The position numbers and the translations under genes were made by a program. Positions 12,510 through 31,993 of a stretch of DNA of 38,664 nt are shown here, one piece after another; within the stretch, counting starts at the first letter, position 1, and the number at the start of each line of letters is the position of its first letter. The stretch is from Spirochaetaceae bacterium (lineage in GTDB: Bacteria; Spirochaetota; Spirochaetia; Treponematales; Breznakiellaceae), in contig JAISQV010000206.1 of the NCBI GenBank assembly GCA_031273985.1, positions 1 through 38,664 of the forward strand, read 5' to 3'. Below the pieces are notes generated by a model. That model was not told where the DNA came from. It searched no databases and saw only the letters and a program-made list of their open reading frames with translations.

Positions 12510-13501
12510 TCAGCCTCTCCTCTTTTCGATGACGATCTCGCGGCGGCCCATTTTGACGGTGACGCGCTCTATGAGTTTGTCGATGATGATGATGTTGCCG
12601 GCGACGCGGTAGTTAACGATGTCGGCCCTGTTTTCGAAGACGGCGGGAAGGTCCTGCTGCAGGACGCTTTCCGGGAAGGTGATGTAGGTTTTTTTGCCGT
12701 CGTCGTAGACCAGGCTGGGGAGCCAGGAAGGTTTTGCGAAGAGACCGTAGGTGACGCGGTAGTTGAAGGAGAGGAAGCGGGGGTCTATGCCCGGAATGCC
12801 GGAAGGCTCGCCGTCTCCGCTCGGGCCTTCCGCCGCGCCGCCCGCAGCATCCGTTACGGCGCCGTCTGAGAGGGGGATATACGTGTTGGGCATACCGGTA
12901 GACAGGTAGCGCCAGCGCACCATGGGCATAAACACGTCGCGGTAGCTTTTCAGAATGATGTGATAGACCCGCCGGTCAGTGTTGATGATGAGGGAGGCTT
13001 CCAGGGAAGCCTCGGTGGGTTTCACGTAGATGTGCTGCACCGCGACGCCGTTTTCGATGTTGTAGCCGGCGCCGAGCATCCAGCGCTCGCTGTCGGAGAT
13101 GAAGGGGGCTTCCACGGCCTTTTCACCGGGCTCGAGCCGTATGTCGCTGGCCCGCAACGGCCTGGTTAGACCTCGTAGACCCAATCGCTGTGGTAGTCGT
13201 AGATCATGGCAGCCCTTGAGTATTCGGAGGGCTGGAGAATACCGTCGCTGTTGGAGCGGGAAACAGCGCCCCTGCCCCGCTCCGGGGGCTGCGGGGCGGG
13301 GCTCTCCGCGTCCGGAGGGTAGACGGGGCGCTCTATTTCGATGACGAGGGGCGGCGGCATTTCGATGGGCACGGTGAGGATGGCGGGAGGCTCCCTGGGG
13401 ACGGTCCCCGCGGCGCTCTGGCGGACCCGTTTTTCCATATCCACGGAGGCGCAGGAGAGGAGCAGCAGGGCGAGGGCGAGGGCTGGCAGTATTCGTGTCA
13501 T
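12510..13501 (-). pseudogene. trbG: T4SS protein TrbG / VirB9, split by a single-nucleotide frameshift at ~13166
   Basis: The N-terminal ORF (13166-13501, lipoprotein-like signal, ends ...YDYHSDWVYEV-stop) and the C-terminal ORF (12510-13184, ...TRPLRASDIRLEPGEK...) join into one VirB9-like protein if one base is restored in GTCTAACC. Confidence 0.8.
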
Positions 13502-15697: not shown

Positions 15698-16546
15698 TTA
15701 CTCCTCCGCTATGGGTTCAAAGAGGCTGCGGCCCCACATTTCGGAGAGGTCCGGGGGGTTGGGCGGGGTTCGGGATTGCCGGTCCCGGCTGAGCTGGTAC
15801 TCGTTGAATTCCGCGGTATCGTAGGAGATCTGGCGCAGGACGCGGTTGGTGTTGAGCGCCGCCTCCGCGAGGAGGGAGAGCAGGCCCTTCTCGCCCATGC
15901 GCTCGCTTTCGGGCAGGCTGCGGTCCTCTTCAAGCCGGGCGAGAGTCGCCTGGTCCTGTTCGGTGTCCCTCATGTGCTCCTCGTTCATGAGTTCCAGTTT
16001 GGTCATGATGTTACGCGCCAGGGTTTCCTCCCGCGCTTTCCAGGTCTGCACGTAGACATAGTTGGCCGGGGTGAGGCCCAGGTTAAGCCACATTTCCCGG
16101 CGCTGGCGCTCCGAAAATTCGTTATCCCAGTAATCCACGTAGGTTGATTCCATGGCGGCGGGGATCTCCGCCACGTCGGCCAGGCGGTAGGTGCGGCCTC
16201 CTATGCGGACGCCCATCCGGTTAAAGCGGGTTTCGGCCTGGCGCTCCAGGTAGAGCTGGCGGTTGTACCAGTCCATGAAGTCGTCCCAGCTGTTCACGCG
16301 GGTAACGTTCCTGAGGTTGTCCAGGGCCATTTGCTCCATGCGGAGCATATTCTGGAACTGGTTGTAGGTGTTCATGGCGTTTTCCACCATCTGGGCTATG
16401 GACTGGGCGTAGTAGGCCGCCTGGTCCAGGTGGGTGGCGCTCATGATGCCTTCCAGGATGGGGGCGGTAACGGCCATCTGCGCGCGGGCCCCCGGGGCCC
16501 CCCAAACGGAAAACAGAATCAGCGCGCTTAGCAACAGCTTTTTCAT
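15698..16546 (-). CDS. trbJ: T4SS protein TrbJ / VirB5
   Basis: Signal peptide MKKLLLSALILFSVWGAPGARA followed by a helical/coiled-coil protein. Position immediately upstream of trbL. Confidence 0.75.
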   Translation of the reverse strand: MKKLLLSALILFSVWGAPGARAQMAVTAPILEGIMSATHLDQAAYYAQSIAQMVENAMNTYNQFQNMLRMEQMALDNLRNVTRVNSWDDFMDWYNRQLYLERQAETRFNRMGVRIGGRTYRLADVAEIPAAMESTYVDYWDNEFSERQRREMWLNLGLTPANYVYVQTWKAREETLARNIMTKLELMNEEHMRDTEQDQATLARLEEDRSLPESERMGEKGLLSLLAEAALNTNRVLRQISYDTAEFNEYQLSRDRQSRTPPNPPDLSEMWGRSLFEPIAEE

Positions 16547-16734
16547 GGGGTTCTCCTCGTAGAACGGGTTATCGTTTCGGGCTACAACTGTTCACGCCGG
16601 GGGGAGTTTTGTTGTTACCGTCCGGCGGGGGATTTTAAGGGGGCGGAGCCCCCTTAGGAGAGGGGGGAGCGGAAGACCGCCGGTACTGCCGAAGGCAGGG
16701 ACGGCGGTCTGCAGCGGGGGGGAGGCTTCCCCCT

Positions 16735-17155
16735 CTAATATATAGTATTGGTTTTAACGCTTTGAGACCAAGCTTCAGCTATAGTGTAATCAGTAAAGGC
16801 ATGAGTAATTACGATACTTCCTTTTTCCGCAAAGCCAGCTACCGTAAAAGCATATTGCGAATCAGCAATGTTAATTTGAACACCGGAATATTGGGCGGAT
16901 ACATTCCAAGCTTGCAGGCTTGGCAGTAGAATTTCGTCTCCCGATACAAGGAAGCCGTTATTGGTTGCCAAACCAATGGTAATGAAATAAAGCCTGCCGT
17001 TCCTGACGTGCGGCATTATAACTTCAAGGGTAGTGCCGGTCTGCGAAAATTCATGCAGATAGTCCGCAATGATACCGGCTACATACACGGGCTCATTATC
17101 CTGCTGGGCAAAGAGGGCGGCGCCGCAGGGCTGACAAAAACAGTGTTTTTCTCAT
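16735..17155 (-). pseudogene. Small secreted-protein paralog P3, signal peptide disrupted by an 8-bp deletion
   Basis: ATG 17155 reads MRKTLFLSALRRRPLCPAG-stop. Relative to P2, the 8 nt CTGTGCTG are missing. The mature part is intact in another frame (track ORF 16735-17088). Confidence 0.7.
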
Positions 17156-17209
17156 TTGTTTCCCCTTTAGTAATGTGCAAGCCTGAGCGTTTGGGTCCAT
17201 CTATCCGCG

Positions 17210-17647
17210 CTAATAGTAATACGCAAGCCTGGCAGTTTGGACCCAATTCTCCAATGACTCATTATCAGGGAAAACATGGGTAACAATAATCCTTCCTGCC
17301 TCCGCAAAACCTGCGACGAATAAATGACCAGTATCGGAGCTGACATATTCAGTTTGACGGCCTTGGTATACGCCAAAAACAGTGTGTTCTGGCGATAGAA
17401 TAAATTGAACGCCGGGTCTTAAATTACCGTCTTCGGCAGGTAAGGCAGGGCTGAGAAAATACAATCGGCCATTTCGGATGAAAGGTTCAAGCTCTTTCAT
17501 CTCTTCATTTTCCATGCCGTTTTCTGCAAATTCACAAACGTAAGGACCGACAAGAAAATGATTCACATAGACGGGCTCATTATCCTGCTGGGCAAAGAGG
17601 GCGGCGCCGCAGCACAGCAGGGCTGACAGAAACAGTGCTTTTTTCAT
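17210..17647 (-). CDS. Small secreted/lipoprotein-like protein, paralog P2
   Basis: AAGGAG RBS. MKKALFLSALLCCGAALFAQQ signal. Paralogous to P1 and P3 (shared VAGFAE.G.I..TH.F). Confidence 0.75.
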   Translation of the reverse strand: MKKALFLSALLCCGAALFAQQDNEPVYVNHFLVGPYVCEFAENGMENEEMKELEPFIRNGRLYFLSPALPAEDGNLRPGVQFILSPEHTVFGVYQGRQTEYVSSDTGHLFVAGFAEAGRIIVTHVFPDNESLENWVQTARLAYYY

Positions 17648-17658
17648 TTGTTTCTCCT

Positions 17659-18078
17659 TTAGTAATGTACAAGCCTGAGCGTTTGGGTCCATCTATCCGC
17701 TGTTTCATAATCGGTAAAGATATGGGTAAGAACAATTTTTCCGGTTTCGGCGAACCCAGCGACAAAAAGAGGGGTTTCTGTGTCAATATTATTTATACGA
17801 TTACCTTGATACGTGGCGAAAACAGCCTGGGAACCCGGCAGCATAATAGAGTCTCCCGACACGAGGGAGCCGTTATGTATCGCCAAGCCAACAGAGGTGA
17901 AGTAAAGCCTGCCGTTTCTGACGTGCGGCATTATACTCTCAAGGGTAGTGCCGGTCTGCGAAAATTCATGCAGATAGTCCCCATAGGCACCGGCGACATA
18001 GACGGGCTCATTATTCTGCTGGGCGAAGAGGGCGGCGGCGCAGCACAGCAGGGCTGACAGAAACAGTGTTTTTTTCAT
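17659..18078 (-). CDS. Small secreted/lipoprotein-like protein, paralog P1
   Basis: MKKTLFLSALLCCAAALFAQQ signal. The ATG overlaps the stop of the upstream PLD-like fragment (ATGA). Confidence 0.75.
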   Translation of the reverse strand: MKKTLFLSALLCCAAALFAQQNNEPVYVAGAYGDYLHEFSQTGTTLESIMPHVRNGRLYFTSVGLAIHNGSLVSGDSIMLPGSQAVFATYQGNRINNIDTETPLFVAGFAETGKIVLTHIFTDYETADRWTQTLRLVHY

Positions 18079-18350
18079 TCTTTCATCCTTCTCAGAAAGC
18101 CGGCATAGATTTTTTCACCCAATTCGGCAAGGCCCCATTTACTGGAGTCATAGCTGTCGGTAACAAAGAGGCTGTTGAAGTAGCGAAGCAATTCATTGAC
18201 AACTTCCGGGTTCCTGAAGGTGAGGCATGATTCGGTATTGGTGTTCATACCGTATTCCGTAAAATTGAGGGAGCCCAGGTAAGCGCTTTCAATAAGGGCA
18301 TAGGGCATTTTACCGGAACGTTCAGGTTCCGTAAGGGGAGACTCGTCCAT
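18075..18350 (-). CDS. Degenerate PLD/Nuc-family C-terminal fragment
   Basis: GGAGGAAAG RBS before ATG 18350. GKMPYALIESAYLGSLNFTEYGMNTNTESCLTFRNPEVVNELLRYFNSLF matches the second half of an HKD motif (K...GS.N.T......N.E......P.......F). The catalytic His position is Ser and the N-terminal half of the fold is absent. Confidence 0.55.
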   Translation of the reverse strand: MDESPLTEPERSGKMPYALIESAYLGSLNFTEYGMNTNTESCLTFRNPEVVNELLRYFNSLFVTDSYDSSKWGLAELGEKIYAGFLRRMKE

Positions 18351-18416
18351 GCGGCTTTCCTCCTTCCGCGGGCGCATTGTAGCACGGGGGGAAGGGCGGC
18401 GCAAGGCGCCGGCGGG

Positions 18417-18650
18417 CTAGGTGGCGGTCTCTGTTACCCTGTAATCTTCGAGTTCTTTGAGGCGCCGGCGGGCGAGTTCCTCTACGATGTCCCCGGGAAG
18501 CATATCGAGGAATTCCTTATAAACGAGGCGCACTTTTCTCCCCGGTTTTGCCGGGGGGATGTCGGAGCAATCAACGGGGTGATTTTTTATTTCGTCAATT
18601 TCCCTGTCGAGGGCTGCCGGCTCATCGAAGGTATTGTCTGAACTGATCAT
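18417..18650 (-). CDS. brnA: BrnA-like antitoxin (DUF4415-like)
   Basis: GGAG RBS before ATG 18650. D-x-SDIPP motif (VDCSDIPPAKPG) and a C-terminal helical segment. Overlaps the brnT 3' end by 29 nt. Confidence 0.6.
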   Translation of the reverse strand: MISSDNTFDEPAALDREIDEIKNHPVDCSDIPPAKPGRKVRLVYKEFLDMLPGDIVEELARRRLKELEDYRVTETAT

Positions 18651-18942
18651 AATAATCTCCTGCTTCCACAGCCTCCGCGCGGCGGGCCGAAAAGACGCGT
18701 ATGAAACCGCCCCGGTAGGTAACGGAGACGGTAACGAGCACATGGCTGGCCAGGCCGGTGACGGAACCTGTAACATTGAAACGGTCTTCGGAGGTTGAAT
18801 TTTCACGGTCGTACTCTTCAATCAGAAAAGGATCGGAAAAGACCGCCGCGGCCGTTTCAAACCTGACGCGGTGTTTTTTCAGGTTTAGTTCCGCCTTTTG
18901 GGCGTCCCATATAAATTTATCTTTGTAGACAACATCGCCCAT
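18622..18942 (-). CDS. brnT: BrnT-family ribonuclease toxin (DUF497)
   Basis: FIWDAQKAELNLKKHRVRFETAAAVFSDP...EDRFNVTG...IRVFSARRA matches the BrnT pattern (F.WD..Ka..N..KHgv.FeeA..vF.Dp...E.R....G....iRiISAR). ATG 18942 was chosen over the track start. Confidence 0.8.
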   Translation of the reverse strand: MGDVVYKDKFIWDAQKAELNLKKHRVRFETAAAVFSDPFLIEEYDRENSTSEDRFNVTGSVTGLASHVLVTVSVTYRGGFIRVFSARRAEAVEAGDYYDQFRQYLR

Positions 18943-19000
18943 GAAAAGACACCATGTAAAACTATAGTATAGCGCCAGCCCTGCGTCAATCCGGCGCGCG

Positions 19001-21823
19001 TCACACAACCTGCGGCACGTTGCCTTCCCTGATGCGGGGGAGGGACTTACAGGCGGCGTAGAGGGTGATTTCGCCGCGTTTGACGGCCTCCACGAGGTCC
19101 GGTGTTCCGTTTTTGAGGAGGCTGCGGGCCTGGTAGACGGTGGAGGGGCTGACGCCTAAGCGTTCTGCGAGGCGCTCCGCGGCGCGCCCCGCGCCGTCTT
19201 TCCGCTTGCGCTGCGGGAGGGCGGCCACGGCGTCGAGGAGCTCCGCGGTTCCGGCATCGGGGATGGCCGCCGCGGTTTCGGGGCCGCGTTCCTCCCGCCC
19301 GGGTTCGGGTTGAGGCGCGGGCGCGGGAACGGCGGCGCGCTGCGGGGCCTCCCGGGGAGCGTCGGGCCCCCTGAGGGAGCGCCAGGGGACGCGGGCGTGG
19401 TCGAGTATATCGGCGCAGAGGGAGACGCCGCCGCCTTTTCCGGCGAGGAGTGCGTCGAGGAATGAGTGGTCGGCGCTCCCGATAAGGGCGAGGGTGAGGC
19501 GCCCGAGGTCGAGGCGGAAGAGGCGGCGCCCGAGGGGGCTGGTGTAGAAGTAATCCCGGCGCATTTCCGCGCCGGCAATGAGGGCTATTTCAGGGTCCGT
19601 GAGGCCGAAGGAACGGTAGACGGGCATCATGTTCTCGGTGAGGGCGGAGGGGTCCGCGAGGTAAATTTTGGTAAGGCACTGCTGGGTGATGGTGGTTTTG
19701 AGGGGCGATTTTTCGACGTCTGCGACGTCCTGGGTGGCGAAGACGACGAAGACATTTTTCTTGCGGAGCACCTTGAGCCATTCGGTAATTTTTTCGGCGA
19801 AGACGGGATTTTTGAGGAAGAGCCAGGCCTCGTCCAGGACGAGGAGTGTGAGGCGGCCGTCGAACAGTTTTTCTACCAGGTTGAAAAGGTAGACGAGGGC
19901 GGGGACGACGCAGCCTTCGCCGCGGTTCATGAGGGCCTCCATTTCAATGGCGAGAAAGGAGGTGTCCAGGGAGAGGGCTGAGGAACGGGCGTCGAAGATT
20001 TTGCCGTATTTGCCGCCGTCCCAGAGATAGTCGCCGAGCATTTCTTTGAAGACCGGGCGTTTTGAGACGGGGTCGAGGTAGTTGACGTACTGGAGGAAGC
20101 TGGTAATGGTGCGGGAAGCCGGGGGCTTTTCGCGGAGGAGTTCGAGGCTCTGCTTAATCTGGGCGCGCATGGGCGGGGAGACCTCGTAGCGGTTGACGGC
20201 GAAGCAGGCTTCGATGAAGTCGATGGCGTTCATGATGTCGCGGTCGGTTTCGAGGTCGCGGAGGGGCTGGAAGCTGACGGCTGCGGCGTTTTCGCCGGCG
20301 GGCTCGTAGAAGAGGCCTCCGGCGGCGAGGCAGGGCTGGCGGCAGGAGCGGCCCTTGTCGAAGACGATGACGCGGGAAGCGGGGTACTTGAAGAACTGCA
20401 TTTCCAGGAGGTTGAGGAAGGTGGACTTGCCCGCGCCGGTGGGGCCCCAGACGGCGGAGTGGCCGACGTCGGAGGGATTCATGTTAAAGAAGAAGGGTGT
20501 GCCTTCCTCGGTGGAGCAGATGAGGTGCGGGATGTCGACACCGGAGACGAGGCCGGCGTGTTCGTTACGGCGCATCCCGGCCCATACGGAGGAGAGGGGG
20601 AGGACGTGGGAGAGGGAGTAGGTCATGACGGGGAGGGAGCGGTAGTTGGCGTAGACCTGGCCCGGCATCATGGACTTCCATGCTTCGAGGGCGTTATAGG
20701 TTTCCTCCTTGCAGGTGAAGCCGGCGCTGTTGACGACAGCTTTTACTTTGTCTGCCTTTTTTTTGGCGGCTTTGAGGTCCCTGTCCCAGACCATGACGCA
20801 GCTCGTGTAGTAGCCGAGGGCGGCCTGGCCGGTTTCTATTTCTATCTGGGCGTCGATGGAGTCGTTTTCCTTGACTCCCGCGCCGTGGTTGACGGTTCTG
20901 GCGGGCTGCCCTGAGGTACTTTCAGCGAAGGTCTGCAGGAAGGTAGTTTTGCTGCCGCGGTGGGCCTTTTCTTTTTTGTGGGCCTCCTTTTTGCCGTCAT
21001 CCAGATCGAGGCAGATATAGCGGGAGACCCAGCGGTATTCGATACGGGAGCGGTTGAGTGTGTCGAGGATGGCGGGGTAGCTGTCTTCCGGGAAGTCGTT
21101 GACGCCGATGACAGGGATAAAGCAGTCGCCGAGCTTCATGGTGAGGGAGGTAACGAGCTCTGAATCCGGCAGGATGCGGTCGAGGAGTATCCTGGTTGCG
21201 GGGAAACGGATGGGGTGCCGGTTGAGGGAGACGCTGGAATGGAGGTAGGCGACGGTCTCCTCGTTGGAGAGGGGGGCGAGAAGCATATCGCGGGAAAGGA
21301 GCGCGGCAACGGCGTCTGTTTCGTTGACAAAGAAGTCTACGTTCTGCTTAATACCCTGGGCTCCTCCCGGAGCGTCCTGGTCCCTCCCGCTGCGGATGAA
21401 CATTTGGGTAAGCTTTTTCACGTTTTCCGAAGGGGGCTTCCAGATGAAGGTGAGGTAGTAACTGGACTCGAAGTGCTCGCCCGCGGCGCGGAAGGCGGCC
21501 TCCCGTTCGCGGTCTATGAGGTAGGGGGCGAGGGCGTCGAAGGAGCCCGGACGGCCGCCGAAGCCGGCCCTGGGGTATTCGGTGGTGTAGAAACGCTGGG
21601 CCTCCAGCTGGAAGGCCCAGCCTGAGCCGAGGCGTCTGGCGAAGTCGTTGACGCGGATGGCGAGGCTGTTGACCTCGAAGGCGCCTGAGGAGTCGATGTC
21701 CGGCGCGCGGTAGGCGAAGGAGCGCTGGAGGATTCCGTCTTTCTGGATGACGACACCTTCATGGAAACGGGTGATGAAGTTCCAAGGGAGGATTTGGTAG
21801 AAGAGGCCTGTAGATTCGCTCAT
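19001..21823 (-). CDS. trbE: T4SS ATPase TrbE / VirB4 with an extra C-terminal ParB-type HTH tail
   Basis: Walker A GPTGAGKST and Walker B LLVLDEAWLF. The N-terminus LPWNFITRFHEGVVIQKDGILQRSFAYRAPD is typical of TrbE. The last ~110 aa are a Pro/Ala linker plus an HTH paralogous to the ParB-like protein of this element. Confidence 0.9.
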   Translation of the reverse strand: MSESTGLFYQILPWNFITRFHEGVVIQKDGILQRSFAYRAPDIDSSGAFEVNSLAIRVNDFARRLGSGWAFQLEAQRFYTTEYPRAGFGGRPGSFDALAPYLIDREREAAFRAAGEHFESSYYLTFIWKPPSENVKKLTQMFIRSGRDQDAPGGAQGIKQNVDFFVNETDAVAALLSRDMLLAPLSNEETVAYLHSSVSLNRHPIRFPATRILLDRILPDSELVTSLTMKLGDCFIPVIGVNDFPEDSYPAILDTLNRSRIEYRWVSRYICLDLDDGKKEAHKKEKAHRGSKTTFLQTFAESTSGQPARTVNHGAGVKENDSIDAQIEIETGQAALGYYTSCVMVWDRDLKAAKKKADKVKAVVNSAGFTCKEETYNALEAWKSMMPGQVYANYRSLPVMTYSLSHVLPLSSVWAGMRRNEHAGLVSGVDIPHLICSTEEGTPFFFNMNPSDVGHSAVWGPTGAGKSTFLNLLEMQFFKYPASRVIVFDKGRSCRQPCLAAGGLFYEPAGENAAAVSFQPLRDLETDRDIMNAIDFIEACFAVNRYEVSPPMRAQIKQSLELLREKPPASRTITSFLQYVNYLDPVSKRPVFKEMLGDYLWDGGKYGKIFDARSSALSLDTSFLAIEMEALMNRGEGCVVPALVYLFNLVEKLFDGRLTLLVLDEAWLFLKNPVFAEKITEWLKVLRKKNVFVVFATQDVADVEKSPLKTTITQQCLTKIYLADPSALTENMMPVYRSFGLTDPEIALIAGAEMRRDYFYTSPLGRRLFRLDLGRLTLALIGSADHSFLDALLAGKGGGVSLCADILDHARVPWRSLRGPDAPREAPQRAAVPAPAPQPEPGREERGPETAAAIPDAGTAELLDAVAALPQRKRKDGAGRAAERLAERLGVSPSTVYQARSLLKNGTPDLVEAVKRGEITLYAACKSLPRIREGNVPQVV

Positions 21824-30350: not shown

Positions 30351-31178
30351 TTACACCTCATCAATCAGCGCTTTTCGCGTATTCCCGGGCAAAAGCGCGT
30401 AAAAAACCGCTTTTTCGCCCTTTTTCAGGAAATGATCGACCAATAACCGAGCCGGAGCCGCTTCGCTCATCGCAATCAAGTGAATAACCGCGCTCCGTAA
30501 AAATTTATTCCTGATGCCGGTCTGGTAATCAGCGGATTCCCGGCTTTCCTTTTCAGAAGCAGCAGCAGCCTCCGCCCCGGTGCCGGCGGAGGCTTTTCCC
30601 CTCCGGGGTTTGGTGATCTGCTTGTACACCGCCCCGATTGTCTTCTCCCCGCTCTGTACCGCTTTCAGCTCCTCTTCCGGCGCTTCCAGCAGAATCTTCC
30701 GTGCCTGGTATATCGTCGAGGGGCTCACCCCGATCCGCTCCGCAAGCTGCTCCGCGGCGCGCCCCGTCCCGTCCTTCTTCTTCCTCCCGTGAATCATCTG
30801 CGCCGCCTGCAGTATCTCCGAAGAAGTAAGATTGCGCCGTAATACCTGCCGCTCGAAGGTATAGAGCATCGCCTCTTCCATGTCGGCAAACTCCATCTCC
30901 GCCGCGGGTATCTCATCCAGCCCGAGCTCCTTCGCCGCGGCAAGCCGCGTGTGCCCGTCTACCAGAATATTCCGCCCTTTCCATATTACGACGGGCTGGC
31001 TCTTGTCGTAGCCGAATTTCTCGATCTTCTCTTTGATCTCAAGAAAGGTCTTGTTTTCGATCTTGAAAATCCGGGCTATCTCAGGCTCTATCACCACGTC
31101 AGCCACCCGCACGGGTTTCGCATAGTAGTTCCGCCCGGCGTTCCAGCCCGCCGTCTCAGGCGTCTCAAGCCGGGCCAT
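30351..31178 (-). CDS. parB: ParB-like nuclease/partition protein
   Basis: ParB N-domain ILVDGHTRLAAAKELGL and HTH GRAAEQLAERIGVSPSTIYQARKIL. ATG 31178 overlaps the parA stop (ATGA). The longer track ORF start was rejected. Confidence 0.85.
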   Translation of the reverse strand: MARLETPETAGWNAGRNYYAKPVRVADVVIEPEIARIFKIENKTFLEIKEKIEKFGYDKSQPVVIWKGRNILVDGHTRLAAAKELGLDEIPAAEMEFADMEEAMLYTFERQVLRRNLTSSEILQAAQMIHGRKKKDGTGRAAEQLAERIGVSPSTIYQARKILLEAPEEELKAVQSGEKTIGAVYKQITKPRRGKASAGTGAEAAAASEKESRESADYQTGIRNKFLRSAVIHLIAMSEAAPARLLVDHFLKKGEKAVFYALLPGNTRKALIDEV

Positions 31179-31993
31179 CAGAAGACCCCCGGCGCTTCCA
31201 GGGCGCCTTCGAAAAAGCAGCCGGCCAGCTCCGCTATCGCATGGTACAGGGCCGGGTTGTATACCGCCCCCGGCGCATCTTTCATGCAGGTAAGACGTTT
31301 GTGGTAATCCACCACCAGGTGTATCTGCGCCGTCCAGGGCAGCCATGTCTCCACCGGCGTCAGGGGAAACCCTCCCTTCCGGTACAAATCGATAAAATCA
31401 CTCTGCCGCCCGGAACGGGCCTCCTCGTAGCGCCGGTTGTAGCCGTTGATCAGGACGTACCAGCTTTTCAGGTCTTCCACATCCCTCGGCAGCACCTCGC
31501 TCATGAACATCGCCGCGTTGTAACTGAATAAATCCTTCAGTACCGGCGTTATGATGTAGTCCGCCGCGTGAAACGTGTTGAGCACAATGTTGTCGTAGGT
31601 CGGGTGGCAGTCGATGATCAGAATGTCGTACTTCCCGTAGAGGCCCGGAACCAGGCGCTTGAGCCGTTTCTCGCTCAGGGTCCTCATGTCGGCAAGGTAG
31701 GGCGTGGACGCTATCAGGTCCACCCCCGGCGTGTCGGTCGGCACGGCGAAGGAGCTCAGATCGTTGCCCTCATCGCTCAGCGCCGCCGCCAGATTCAGCT
31801 TCCGGGTCCGTTCCATCATCTCTTTGTTCAGAAAGTAAAAAGAGAGGCTGTTGTTCAGGTCGCTGTCGGCAAGCACTACCCGCTTGCCCGCGGCCGCGCA
31901 ATACTTGGCCAGCAGGATGGCTATGTTCGTTTTTCCCACCCCGCCCTTGATGAATCCCAACGACACTACCGTCGTCTTCGCTTCCTTTTCCAT
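31178..31993 (-). CDS. parA: ParA/Soj-family partition ATPase
   Basis: Deviant Walker A FIKGGVGKTN. GGAGGA RBS before ATG 31993. Confidence 0.9.
   Translation of the reverse strand: MEKEAKTTVVSLGFIKGGVGKTNIAILLAKYCAAAGKRVVLADSDLNNSLSFYFLNKEMMERTRKLNLAAALSDEGNDLSSFAVPTDTPGVDLIASTPYLADMRTLSEKRLKRLVPGLYGKYDILIIDCHPTYDNIVLNTFHAADYIITPVLKDLFSYNAAMFMSEVLPRDVEDLKSWYVLINGYNRRYEEARSGRQSDFIDLYRKGGFPLTPVETWLPWTAQIHLVVDYHKRLTCMKDAPGAVYNPALYHAIAELAGCFFEGALEAPGVF

Follow-up and report, generated by a model that had tools for sequence, protein, structure and literature searches.

Entry-exclusion lipoproteins of conjugative elements are between 69 and 151 aa long and dispensable for transfer; among them, trbK of IncP plasmids lies beside the genes for VirB5 and VirB6 (PMC8923210). 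TrbK (IncP/Ti) and EexN (IncN) are poorly conserved, not required for transfer, and swapped between related elements (PMC8923210). On the map of R46, the gene for EexN is found beside the VirB5/VirB6 genes, and that for Nuc, a single-HKD protein of the phospholipase D (PLD) superfamily, comes last, after virB11. Nuc and NucT, the latter from Helicobacter pylori, are exported. An enzyme gene followed by one or more genes for small periplasmic proteins is also the arrangement of the Tle5-Tli5 arrays of type VI secretion systems and of the X-Tfe/X-Tfi pairs of X-type type IV secretion systems (X-T4SSs); in Xanthomonas, an X-Tfe toxin without Sec signal is paired with a periplasmic X-Tfi immunity protein. 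To our knowledge, conjugation and the biology of integrative conjugative elements (ICEs) have hardly been studied in spirochaetes. Here, a locus is described in a 38,664-nt stretch of DNA from a Spirochaetaceae bacterium (contig JAISQV010000206.1; the full stretch is called the window) where, between the conjugation genes trbE and trbJ, a shortened PLD gene precedes three paralogous genes for small proteins with export leaders. These paralogs define a small, previously undescribed family, the mature domain of which is an OB-fold according to a confident structural model. Tentatively, they are regarded as an entry-exclusion-like periplasmic factor acting on the conjugation machinery.

As with TrbK and EexN, the family consists of small exported proteins encoded within the mating-pair-formation (Mpf) operon beside VirB5/VirB6 genes, albeit before trbJ and not between trbJ and trbL. 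It shares no sequence similarity with them and differs further in its larger mature domain (~118 aa, predicted OB-fold), its mostly signal peptidase I-type leader, its arrays of one to three diverged copies, and its link to PLD genes. VirB7, a lipobox lipoprotein of ~40–60 aa and conserved single-copy partner of VirB9, is unlike the family on each of these points; a VirB7-like lipoprotein was rejected as a candidate because the mature domain measures ~118 aa, most members lack a lipobox, the copy number ranges from one to three, and the family is absent from two related loci (L001 and L002). The intact homologues of the shortened PLD gene resemble Nuc of pKM101/R46 in being single-HKD PLDs encoded within a T4SS operon but, unlike Nuc and NucT, lack a Sec signal or carry one membrane helix at the N-terminus and are encoded between trbE and trbJ; the remnant in the window deviates further, as of the enzyme it retains only the last ~78 residues, without the catalytic His. 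The order of enzyme and small-protein genes is that of Tle5-Tli5 and X-Tfe/X-Tfi, and loss of the enzyme with retention of the small genes resembles orphan immunity genes. However, no PAAR, VgrG, or XVIPCD-type domain was found (Pfam), the PLD is small and nuclease-like, and there is no co-variation between enzyme and small-protein family.

Exported paralogs with a predicted OB-fold

The window is a spirochaete-type ICE with a Ti-type trb operon (trbB..E-J-L-F-G-I). It encodes a tyrosine integrase, a topoisomerase, TrbB/E/J/L, VirB8, VirB9, VirB10/TrbI, a coupling protein, a relaxase, and ArdC, and the nearest relatives of its TrbE are from Spirochaetaceae and Spirochaetales metagenome-assembled genomes (MAGs). 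The trbE-trbJ interval is a variable cargo slot within the operon, with a GC content of 47–55% (positions 16500–19000) versus ~60% in the flanks. All ORFs of the slot are on the minus strand, and their order is given from high to low coordinate (Table 1).

The three paralogs match each other at E values of 1e-34 to 1e-36 and are 49–63% identical. The copies are 92–96% identical over leader codons 1–25 and ~25 nt upstream, but much less so in their bodies. An earlier reading of the window from its sequence only had described three paralogs with near-identical leaders resembling signal peptides or those of lipoproteins. While the homology of all three is borne out, only paralogs 1 and 2 are intact: compared with these, paralog 3 lacks 8 nt in its leader (at ∼17125, between two CTGC repeats), so that a reading frame of just 19 codons starts at the ATG at 17155, and the 117-aa body lies in another frame. 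For this body, dN/dS against paralog 1 was 0.33; synonymous sites between copy 2 and copies 1 and 3 were saturated. By heuristic call, the leaders look signal peptidase I-like (..LFA↓QQ) rather than like canonical lipoboxes. A further trace of the array is a 39–42-nt remnant of another copy's 3′ end (17168–17206, 97% identical to 17660–17698).

When 1.84 billion representatives were searched with a HMMER profile built from the three mature domains, 43 proteins were retrieved at E ≤ 0.001, and 35 of these also passed E ≤ 1e-10. Single-domain proteins of 89–190 aa make up about 37 of the 43; the remainder consists of the proteins of the window itself, a fragment, and four long proteins with repeats. 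The latter (P0035, with 4333 aa, P0039, P0043, and P0044) were set aside, as each matches only over a stretch of ~30 residues (around PxxxNGRLYF), 4–11 times, which is probably an unrelated β-repeat motif. Neither Pfam nor NCBIfam nor PADLOC matched the window paralogs or the 37 family members, which agrees with the earlier statement that they belong to no recognized family, and searching PDB sequences with the profile yielded nothing. A single-sequence, word-indexed search of 5.8 billion proteins returned only the window's own proteins, tblastn with a family member against 72,556 plasmids gave no match, and a first scan of metagenomes with family peptide patterns revealed no relatives. Almost every full-length member begins with a hydrophobic leader; in an extended set, 40 of 48 sequences had an N-terminal leader, the remainder being mostly partial gene calls. 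By the simple heuristic used for all leader and signal-peptide calls, ~27 leaders were signal peptidase I-like (..[FAW][AS]↓QQ), and ~9 had a lipobox Cys followed by a linker.

The AlphaFold2 model obtained from a 19-sequence alignment had a pLDDT of 94.2 and a pTM of 0.86; an earlier one from a three-sequence alignment (pLDDT 66, no meaningful Foldseek matches) was discarded. The top 20 or more Foldseek matches in the PDB were OB-folds (RPA32/RPA14, CcmE, Stn1/Ten1, and N-terminal domains of tRNA synthetases), with probabilities of up to 1.0 but E values of only 4e-3, TM scores of ~0.5, and ~15% identity, that is, likeness at the level of the fold only. Foldseek found nothing significant in a viral library. 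As in RPA32/RPA14 and periplasmic CcmE, the modeled β-barrel is flanked by N- and C-terminal helices; unlike RPA32/RPA14, the family is bacterial and Sec-exported.

In a neighbor-joining tree, the A-type contained window copies 1 and 3, L005 copy 1, and L008 copy 2, and the B-type contained window copy 2, L005 copy 2, L006, L009, L011, and L012 (L numbers designate related loci). There are between one and three family copies per locus, and the A-B order is common to the window and L005. Thus, old A and B subclades, arranged in the same order in two elements, indicate that the array is more than a recent local amplification. Three members (P0009, P0011, and P0023; L008 1233–1736) end in a TrbJ-like C-terminal tail (e.g. 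GLSERWGKELFSPIVGE), which copies the motif PPNPPxLSEMWGKELFxPI. Between the family tail and the cognate TrbJ tail of L008 (the TrbJ C-terminus in the window is at 15698–15760), 8 codon changes are synonymous and 3 are non-synonymous, suggesting that the peptide is under selection in both proteins. The tail is suggestive of an interaction with a T4SS component that is maintained by selection.

This observation also bears on a different explanation, namely that the family is a structural or assembly accessory of the T4SS on the donor side, for example a stabilizer like VirB7, a factor at the pilus tip or for recipient binding, or a periplasmic protein that partners or chaperones TrbJ. In one variant, A- and B-type proteins might form a hetero-oligomer via their terminal helices, as RPA14/RPA32 do. 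Besides the tail under purifying selection in some members, the position of the family gene directly upstream of, and co-oriented with, trbJ, the A-B order kept in two elements, and an OB-fold with N- and C-terminal helices most like RPA32/RPA14 are consistent with such a role. However, the slot is empty in L002 and holds unrelated families in other relatives, so that no single family is essential; the copy number varies from one to three; and Pfam and NCBIfam show no similarity to known T4SS components. Moreover, TrbG (VirB9) has its own lipobox (LLSC), which means that a separate VirB7 is not obviously needed. Overall, an accessory role is considered rather unlikely.

The PLD gene and its remnants

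The 91-aa ORF preceding paralog 1 had been taken for a degraded PLD/Nuc-like fragment, and this assignment held. It matches Pfam PLDc_2 at positions 92–131 of 132 only (E 1.1e-5; 25.7 bits, with the cut-off at 27 bits), and tblastn aligned it with the C-termini of intact PLDs at 1.6e-14 (L006), 9.6e-13 (L013), and 6e-18 (L033); these place it in the PLD superfamily, intact relatives scoring 1.7e-20 and 2.7e-14 against PLDc_2. A PDB sequence search with the stub found nothing. The full PLD fold of ~130 residues is not present, residues ~12–190 of the 203–279-aa homologues being gone, and the catalytic motif HxKx4Dx6GSxN is incomplete. It reads S-G-K-MPYA-L-IESAYL-GSLN, where the intact homologues have HAKLYIIDDTIAFAGSIN and L006 has H-A-K-LYII-D-DTIAFA-GSIN. 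The comparison with L006 verified the replacement of the catalytic His by Ser noticed before and revealed that the motif Asp is lost as well (Leu); the distance between Lys and Gly is x11, not x12 as had been given.

The fragment is also more than the distal half of the gene, as its first ~12 residues look native: MDESPLTEPE resembles MEESLEEAND (L033) and MADTSQTAD (L013). Furthermore, the block upstream of the stub aligns with TGGTATAGT...GGAGGAAAGCC before the intact L006 PLD gene and with TGAGATAAT in L031; a TGnTAnAAT box and a GGAGG ribosome-binding site (RBS) are shared with L006. This block would comprise the promoter and RBS of the former PLD gene. The native-like N-terminus and the aligned box and RBS indicate that the stub results from an internal deletion, not from truncation at the 5′ end. 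Judged from its sequence, the stub has thus kept putative expression signals, the first codons, and a 3′ end translationally coupled to paralog 1, the ATG of which (18078) overlaps the stub's stop as ATGA, just as had been reported.

Intact PLD genes (203–279 aa, with a perfect HxKx4Dx6GSxN motif) occupy the same operon position in related metagenomic elements, and those scanned or with precomputed Pfam hits match PLDc_2. In five loci, an intact PLD gene adjoins a family gene. Four of these (L006/7, L013, L033, and L034) show the arrangement anticipated earlier for other genomes, a full-length PLD gene followed by one family member, here with the PLD stop overlapping the family start; in L035, the order is reversed, the family gene coming first. 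By similarity, the PLDs belong to the nuclease branch (NucT 4.3e-5, Zucchini/MitoPLD, Nuc, and DrmC 1.8e-11). Among solved structures, H. pylori NucT (6ehi) ranks in the top two by sequence and comes closest over the whole domain, whereas Nuc (1byr) is a weak match (E 0.65). Pfam identified only the PLD domain in the intact proteins and no secretion, delivery, or recognition domain. The N-termini are either hydrophilic without a Sec signal (L013, L033, and L031) or contain a single transmembrane helix (L006 and L034). An intact PLD had no tblastn match among the 72,556 plasmids.

That the closest relative of the PLD is NucT, that the OB-fold is closest to the single-stranded DNA-binding RPA subunits, and that the two genes are adjacent within a T4SS operon could be accommodated by a DNA-handling module. 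A periplasmic nucleic acid-binding OB-fold protein and the PLD nuclease would then take part in transfer or uptake via the T4SS, paralleling NucT and the ComB T4SS of H. pylori. However, at a TM score of ~0.5 and ~15% identity the structural likeness is remote, and OB-folds also bind sugars, heme (CcmE being among the matches), and proteins. Furthermore, the PLD is not exported, so that the two proteins would reside in different compartments, and it is dispensable, having often been deleted. A joint function of this kind is very improbable.

PLD remnants of different extent were found in other loci of the family (Table 1), and either an intact PLD gene or a remnant is present in 10 of 13 family loci; L008 has no PLD trace, though it contains two family copies. 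The differences among the remnants imply at least four or five independent losses of the PLD, none of which affected the junction with the family gene. Under either an exclusion or an immunity reading, repeated deletions that spare the 3′ end illustrate how the expression signals of a downstream gene can constrain the decay of the gene preceding it.

Loss of the PLD with retention of the family gene also enters the explanation that the sequence-only reading had put first. In an orphan immunity island, the PLD would be an antibacterial effector delivered to the periplasm of a neighboring cell in the manner of the X-T4SS, and the OB-fold proteins would be immunity proteins, kept and multiplied after decay of the toxin. 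An intact PLD adjoining a family gene in five loci (with overlap in four), remnants in five more, a toxin repeatedly lost beside a neighbor kept in arrays of one to three copies, and the match with a Sec-less toxin and periplasmic immunity protein, as in X-Tfe/X-Tfi of Xanthomonas, argue for it. Yet the PLD is of the nuclease branch, with similarity to NucT (4e-5), DrmC (1.8e-11), Zucchini, and Nuc, and the site of action of a nuclease would be the cytoplasm, out of reach of an exported immunity protein. The intact PLDs show PLDc_2 only, without secretion or recognition domain, and some are membrane-anchored at the N-terminus. L031 encodes an ortholog of the L006 PLD (45% identity across 174 residues), yet the next gene there specifies an unrelated small exported protein (the "PDPENPFQGTW" family); remote homology of this family with the OB-fold family was rejected (hhalign probability 2.6%). 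In addition, the position before trbJ is also filled behind a lipoprotein as well as behind NERD nucleases and an SF1 helicase-DUF2726 protein, enzymes for which periplasmic immunity makes little sense; the two family copies without PLD trace in L008 do not fit; and the fixed position beside trbJ is left unexplained. Orphan immunity is thus unlikely, and it gave way as the primary reading mainly because of the PLDs lacking a Sec signal, the pairing in L031, and the varied enzymes preceding small exported proteins. Its most specific form, a contact-dependent toxin/immunity pair of PLD and OB-fold protein carried by the conjugative T4SS, with the array in the window providing orphan immunities against PLD-armed relatives, appears quite improbable. 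If it were true, contact-dependent antagonism or killing would be built into a conjugative element, together with a new OB-fold immunity family.

The position before trbJ in related elements

Where the gene after the family member could be seen, it usually was trbJ, directly adjoining, as in seven loci (the window, L005, L008, L011, L012, L013, and L034). In L009, a lipoprotein gene comes between the two, and L032 has trbL immediately after the family gene. L002 has an empty slot, and that of L001 contains the gene for a BspA-type leucine-rich repeat lipoprotein. A second sample, independent of the family, comprised 17 loci (L015–L031) reached via distant TrbJ homologues (34–42% identity), and none of these contained the OB-fold family. 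A small protein (105–135 aa) with signal peptide or lipobox is encoded just before trbJ in 12 of the 13 distant loci with upstream DNA, and these proteins represent at least four unrelated families. The gene further upstream varies (PLD, NERD nuclease, SF1 helicase-DUF2726, CsgG-like lipoprotein, or nothing recognized). The locus defines a variable two-gene trbE-trbJ slot in one lineage of spirochaete-type ICEs, consisting of a nuclease-type enzyme and a small exported protein, and the position of the exported protein is filled in nearly all examined relatives, by unrelated families.

The proteins in the enzyme position share their first 5–10 codons (M..SQNAxEGD / MQELS) and upstream DNA, whatever their domain (e.g. 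L031 3583–4431, L029 175–855, L028 1710–4397, and L018 3182–4522). That this common N-terminus is a secretion signal was rejected, because the Sec-exported CsgG-like lipoprotein has it too, together with the conserved upstream DNA; this combination looks more like a recombination (cassette-exchange) junction within the first codons of the gene.

The location of the gene, the size and export of its product, its dispensability, and its rapid replacement by non-homologous genes are all hallmarks of entry exclusion, which is why a role of this kind is ranked first. An exclusion or surface protein, mentioned in the sequence-only reading as the alternative, appears to fit the position beside trbJ and the pattern across loci better than orphan immunity does. 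The ancestral slot would have contained two genes, one for a Nuc/NucT-like PLD, either cytoplasmic or membrane-anchored, and after it one for a small, Sec-exported OB-fold protein. In the element of the window, a BrnTA toxin-antitoxin module would then have been inserted upstream, and an internal deletion of the PLD gene would have spared the promoter-like box, the RBS, the first codons, and the coupled 3′ end. The OB-fold genes may represent an old A/B pair plus a more recent A-type duplicate, which was later frameshifted. Their products would be exported to the periplasm, a minority of the wider family being lipid-anchored, and would be the functional counterpart of TrbK/EexN there; diverged paralogs would broaden the range of relatives that are excluded.

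Several findings weigh against exclusion. Neither Pfam nor NCBIfam reveals sequence or profile similarity to known exclusion proteins, and homology to EexN was rejected, as hhalign against EexN of R46 gave a probability of 25% with only the signal peptide aligned. The family gene precedes trbJ instead of lying between trbJ and trbL, and most members look soluble, unlike the lipid-anchored TrbK/EexN. The OB-fold is without precedent among exclusion proteins: a full-text search found no paper joining entry exclusion, OB-fold, and conjugation. The tight adjacency to PLD (10 of 13 loci, stop/start overlap, and one case of reversed order) is not predicted by exclusion alone. Moreover, trbG is frameshifted in the element of the window, because of which the T4SS may be non-functional here. 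Finally, the context loci are few and short, stem from a handful of metagenomes, and were all reached via the family or TrbJ, which makes the sampling small and biased. Nevertheless, as a compact, confidently modeled OB-fold without annotation in the libraries searched, the family qualifies as a candidate for a new class of factors in exclusion or interaction with the T4SS. If exclusion is true, the A/B arrays and the TrbJ-like tails would provide handles on exclusion specificity outside the proteobacterial models.

Other features of the slot and the trb operon

Table 1. Features of the trbE-trbJ slot and its borders in the window, and PLD remnants in related loci
Feature	Position or locus	Strand	Basis and remarks
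trbE/virB4-like ATPase gene, C-terminal helix-turn-helix extension	19001..21823	-	Pfam P-loop_TraG 4.4e-14, CagE_TrbE_VirB; 67% identity to Spirochaetaceae MAG homologue; upstream slot boundary
BrnT-family toxin gene	18622..19008	-	Pfam BrnT_toxin 2.2e-21; homologous BrnT/BrnA pairs in slot of L008, L011
BrnA-like antitoxin candidate, 77 aa from ATG 18650	18417..18650	-	tblastn 2e-5 to small gene after BrnT in L008, L011
Promoter-like extended -10 box TGCTACAAT (18376-18384) and RBS AAGGAGGAAA (18356-18365)	18356..18384	-	Alignment to L006, L031
PLD remnant, 91 aa: native first ~12 residues fused to last ~78 of a Nuc/NucT-like single-HKD PLD	18075..18350	-	PLDc_2; tblastn; PADLOC DrmC 8.5e-5
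Paralog 1, 139 aa, A-type: Sec leader and ~118-aa OB-fold domain (predicted)	17659..18078	-	AlphaFold2 pLDDT 94.2; Foldseek top matches RPA32/RPA14
Paralog 2, 145 aa from ATG 17647, B-type: Sec leader and OB-fold domain (predicted)	17210..17647	-	49% identical to paralog 1; in neighbor-joining tree with L005 copy 2, L009, L012
Scar: last ~14 codons of an A-type copy, after the paralog 2 stop	17168..17209	-	Direct repeat D3; tblastn to fam_c1 residues 126-139 at 17170-17211
Paralog 3, A-type, frameshifted; intact 117-aa body at 16735-17088	16735..17155	-	DNA alignment; adding 8 nt restores frame
GC-rich spacer, 188 nt, three stable stem-loops, between paralog 3 and trbJ	16547..16734	-	Minimum free energy -79.4 kcal/mol, z = -4.98 versus shuffles; inverted repeat I1
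trbJ (VirB5-like), C-terminal motif PPNPPxLSEMWGKxLFxPI	15698..16546	-	Homologues 49-57% identity; tblastn local identities 51-58%; downstream slot boundary
PLD remnant	L009		Last 32 codons kept
PLD remnant	L012		Last ~52 codons kept
PLD remnant	L011		C-terminal third, upstream of BrnTA
PLD remnant	L005		Probably last ~15 codons, behind HicAB module

At the upstream end of the slot, a BrnT domain followed by a small gene constitutes a type II toxin-antitoxin arrangement of the BrnT/BrnA kind. The true start of BrnT is probably an internal Met (MGDVVYKDKF...), and the 77-aa BrnA-like ORF has no Pfam match, including none to BrnA. Type II modules in the slot differ between elements, being BrnTA in the window (18417–19008), L008 (88–550), and L011 (412–901), and HicAB in L005 (2520–2908), and their placement relative to the PLD remnant varies as well. 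The C-terminal ~130 residues of TrbE (19001–19400) contain a helix-turn-helix (HTH) motif (weak Pfam HTH_23/HTH_28). This extension is present in L001 and L005 and absent from L002, and a second copy of the HTH segment is located at 30609–30836 (minus strand), within ORF 30351–31346, with 43% identity to the TrbE tail of L005.

At the downstream end, the 188-nt spacer contains no T-run, and no Rfam family was found in the region; it could be a transcript-stabilizing, attenuating, or recombination element. The corresponding spacer in L005 is much shorter. The product of the gene following trbJ has a Pfam match to TrbL, and the trbJ stop overlaps the trbL start, so that there is no trbK gene between the two in the window.

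An apparent 1-nt deletion near 13166–13169 (..WVYEV/TA-ACC..) breaks the trbG gene (VirB9/CagX-like, 12510–13501, minus strand) into two frames, whereas in L005 and L001 the homologue is one uninterrupted ORF of ~323 aa. The split reflects either an inactivated T4SS or an indel error of the assembly. Likewise, the trbG frameshift, the 8-nt deletion in paralog 3, and the shortened PLD gene may together be signs of decay in this copy of the element, or they may be due to indel errors in the assembly. The interval between trbG and trbI showed no separate gene for VirB7/TrbH. TrbG/VirB9 has a lipobox (LLLLSC) at its N-terminus (13169–13501, minus strand), as is also the case in L001 and L002; from these sequences, the VirB9 homologue of the spirochaete systems appears to be a lipoprotein itself.

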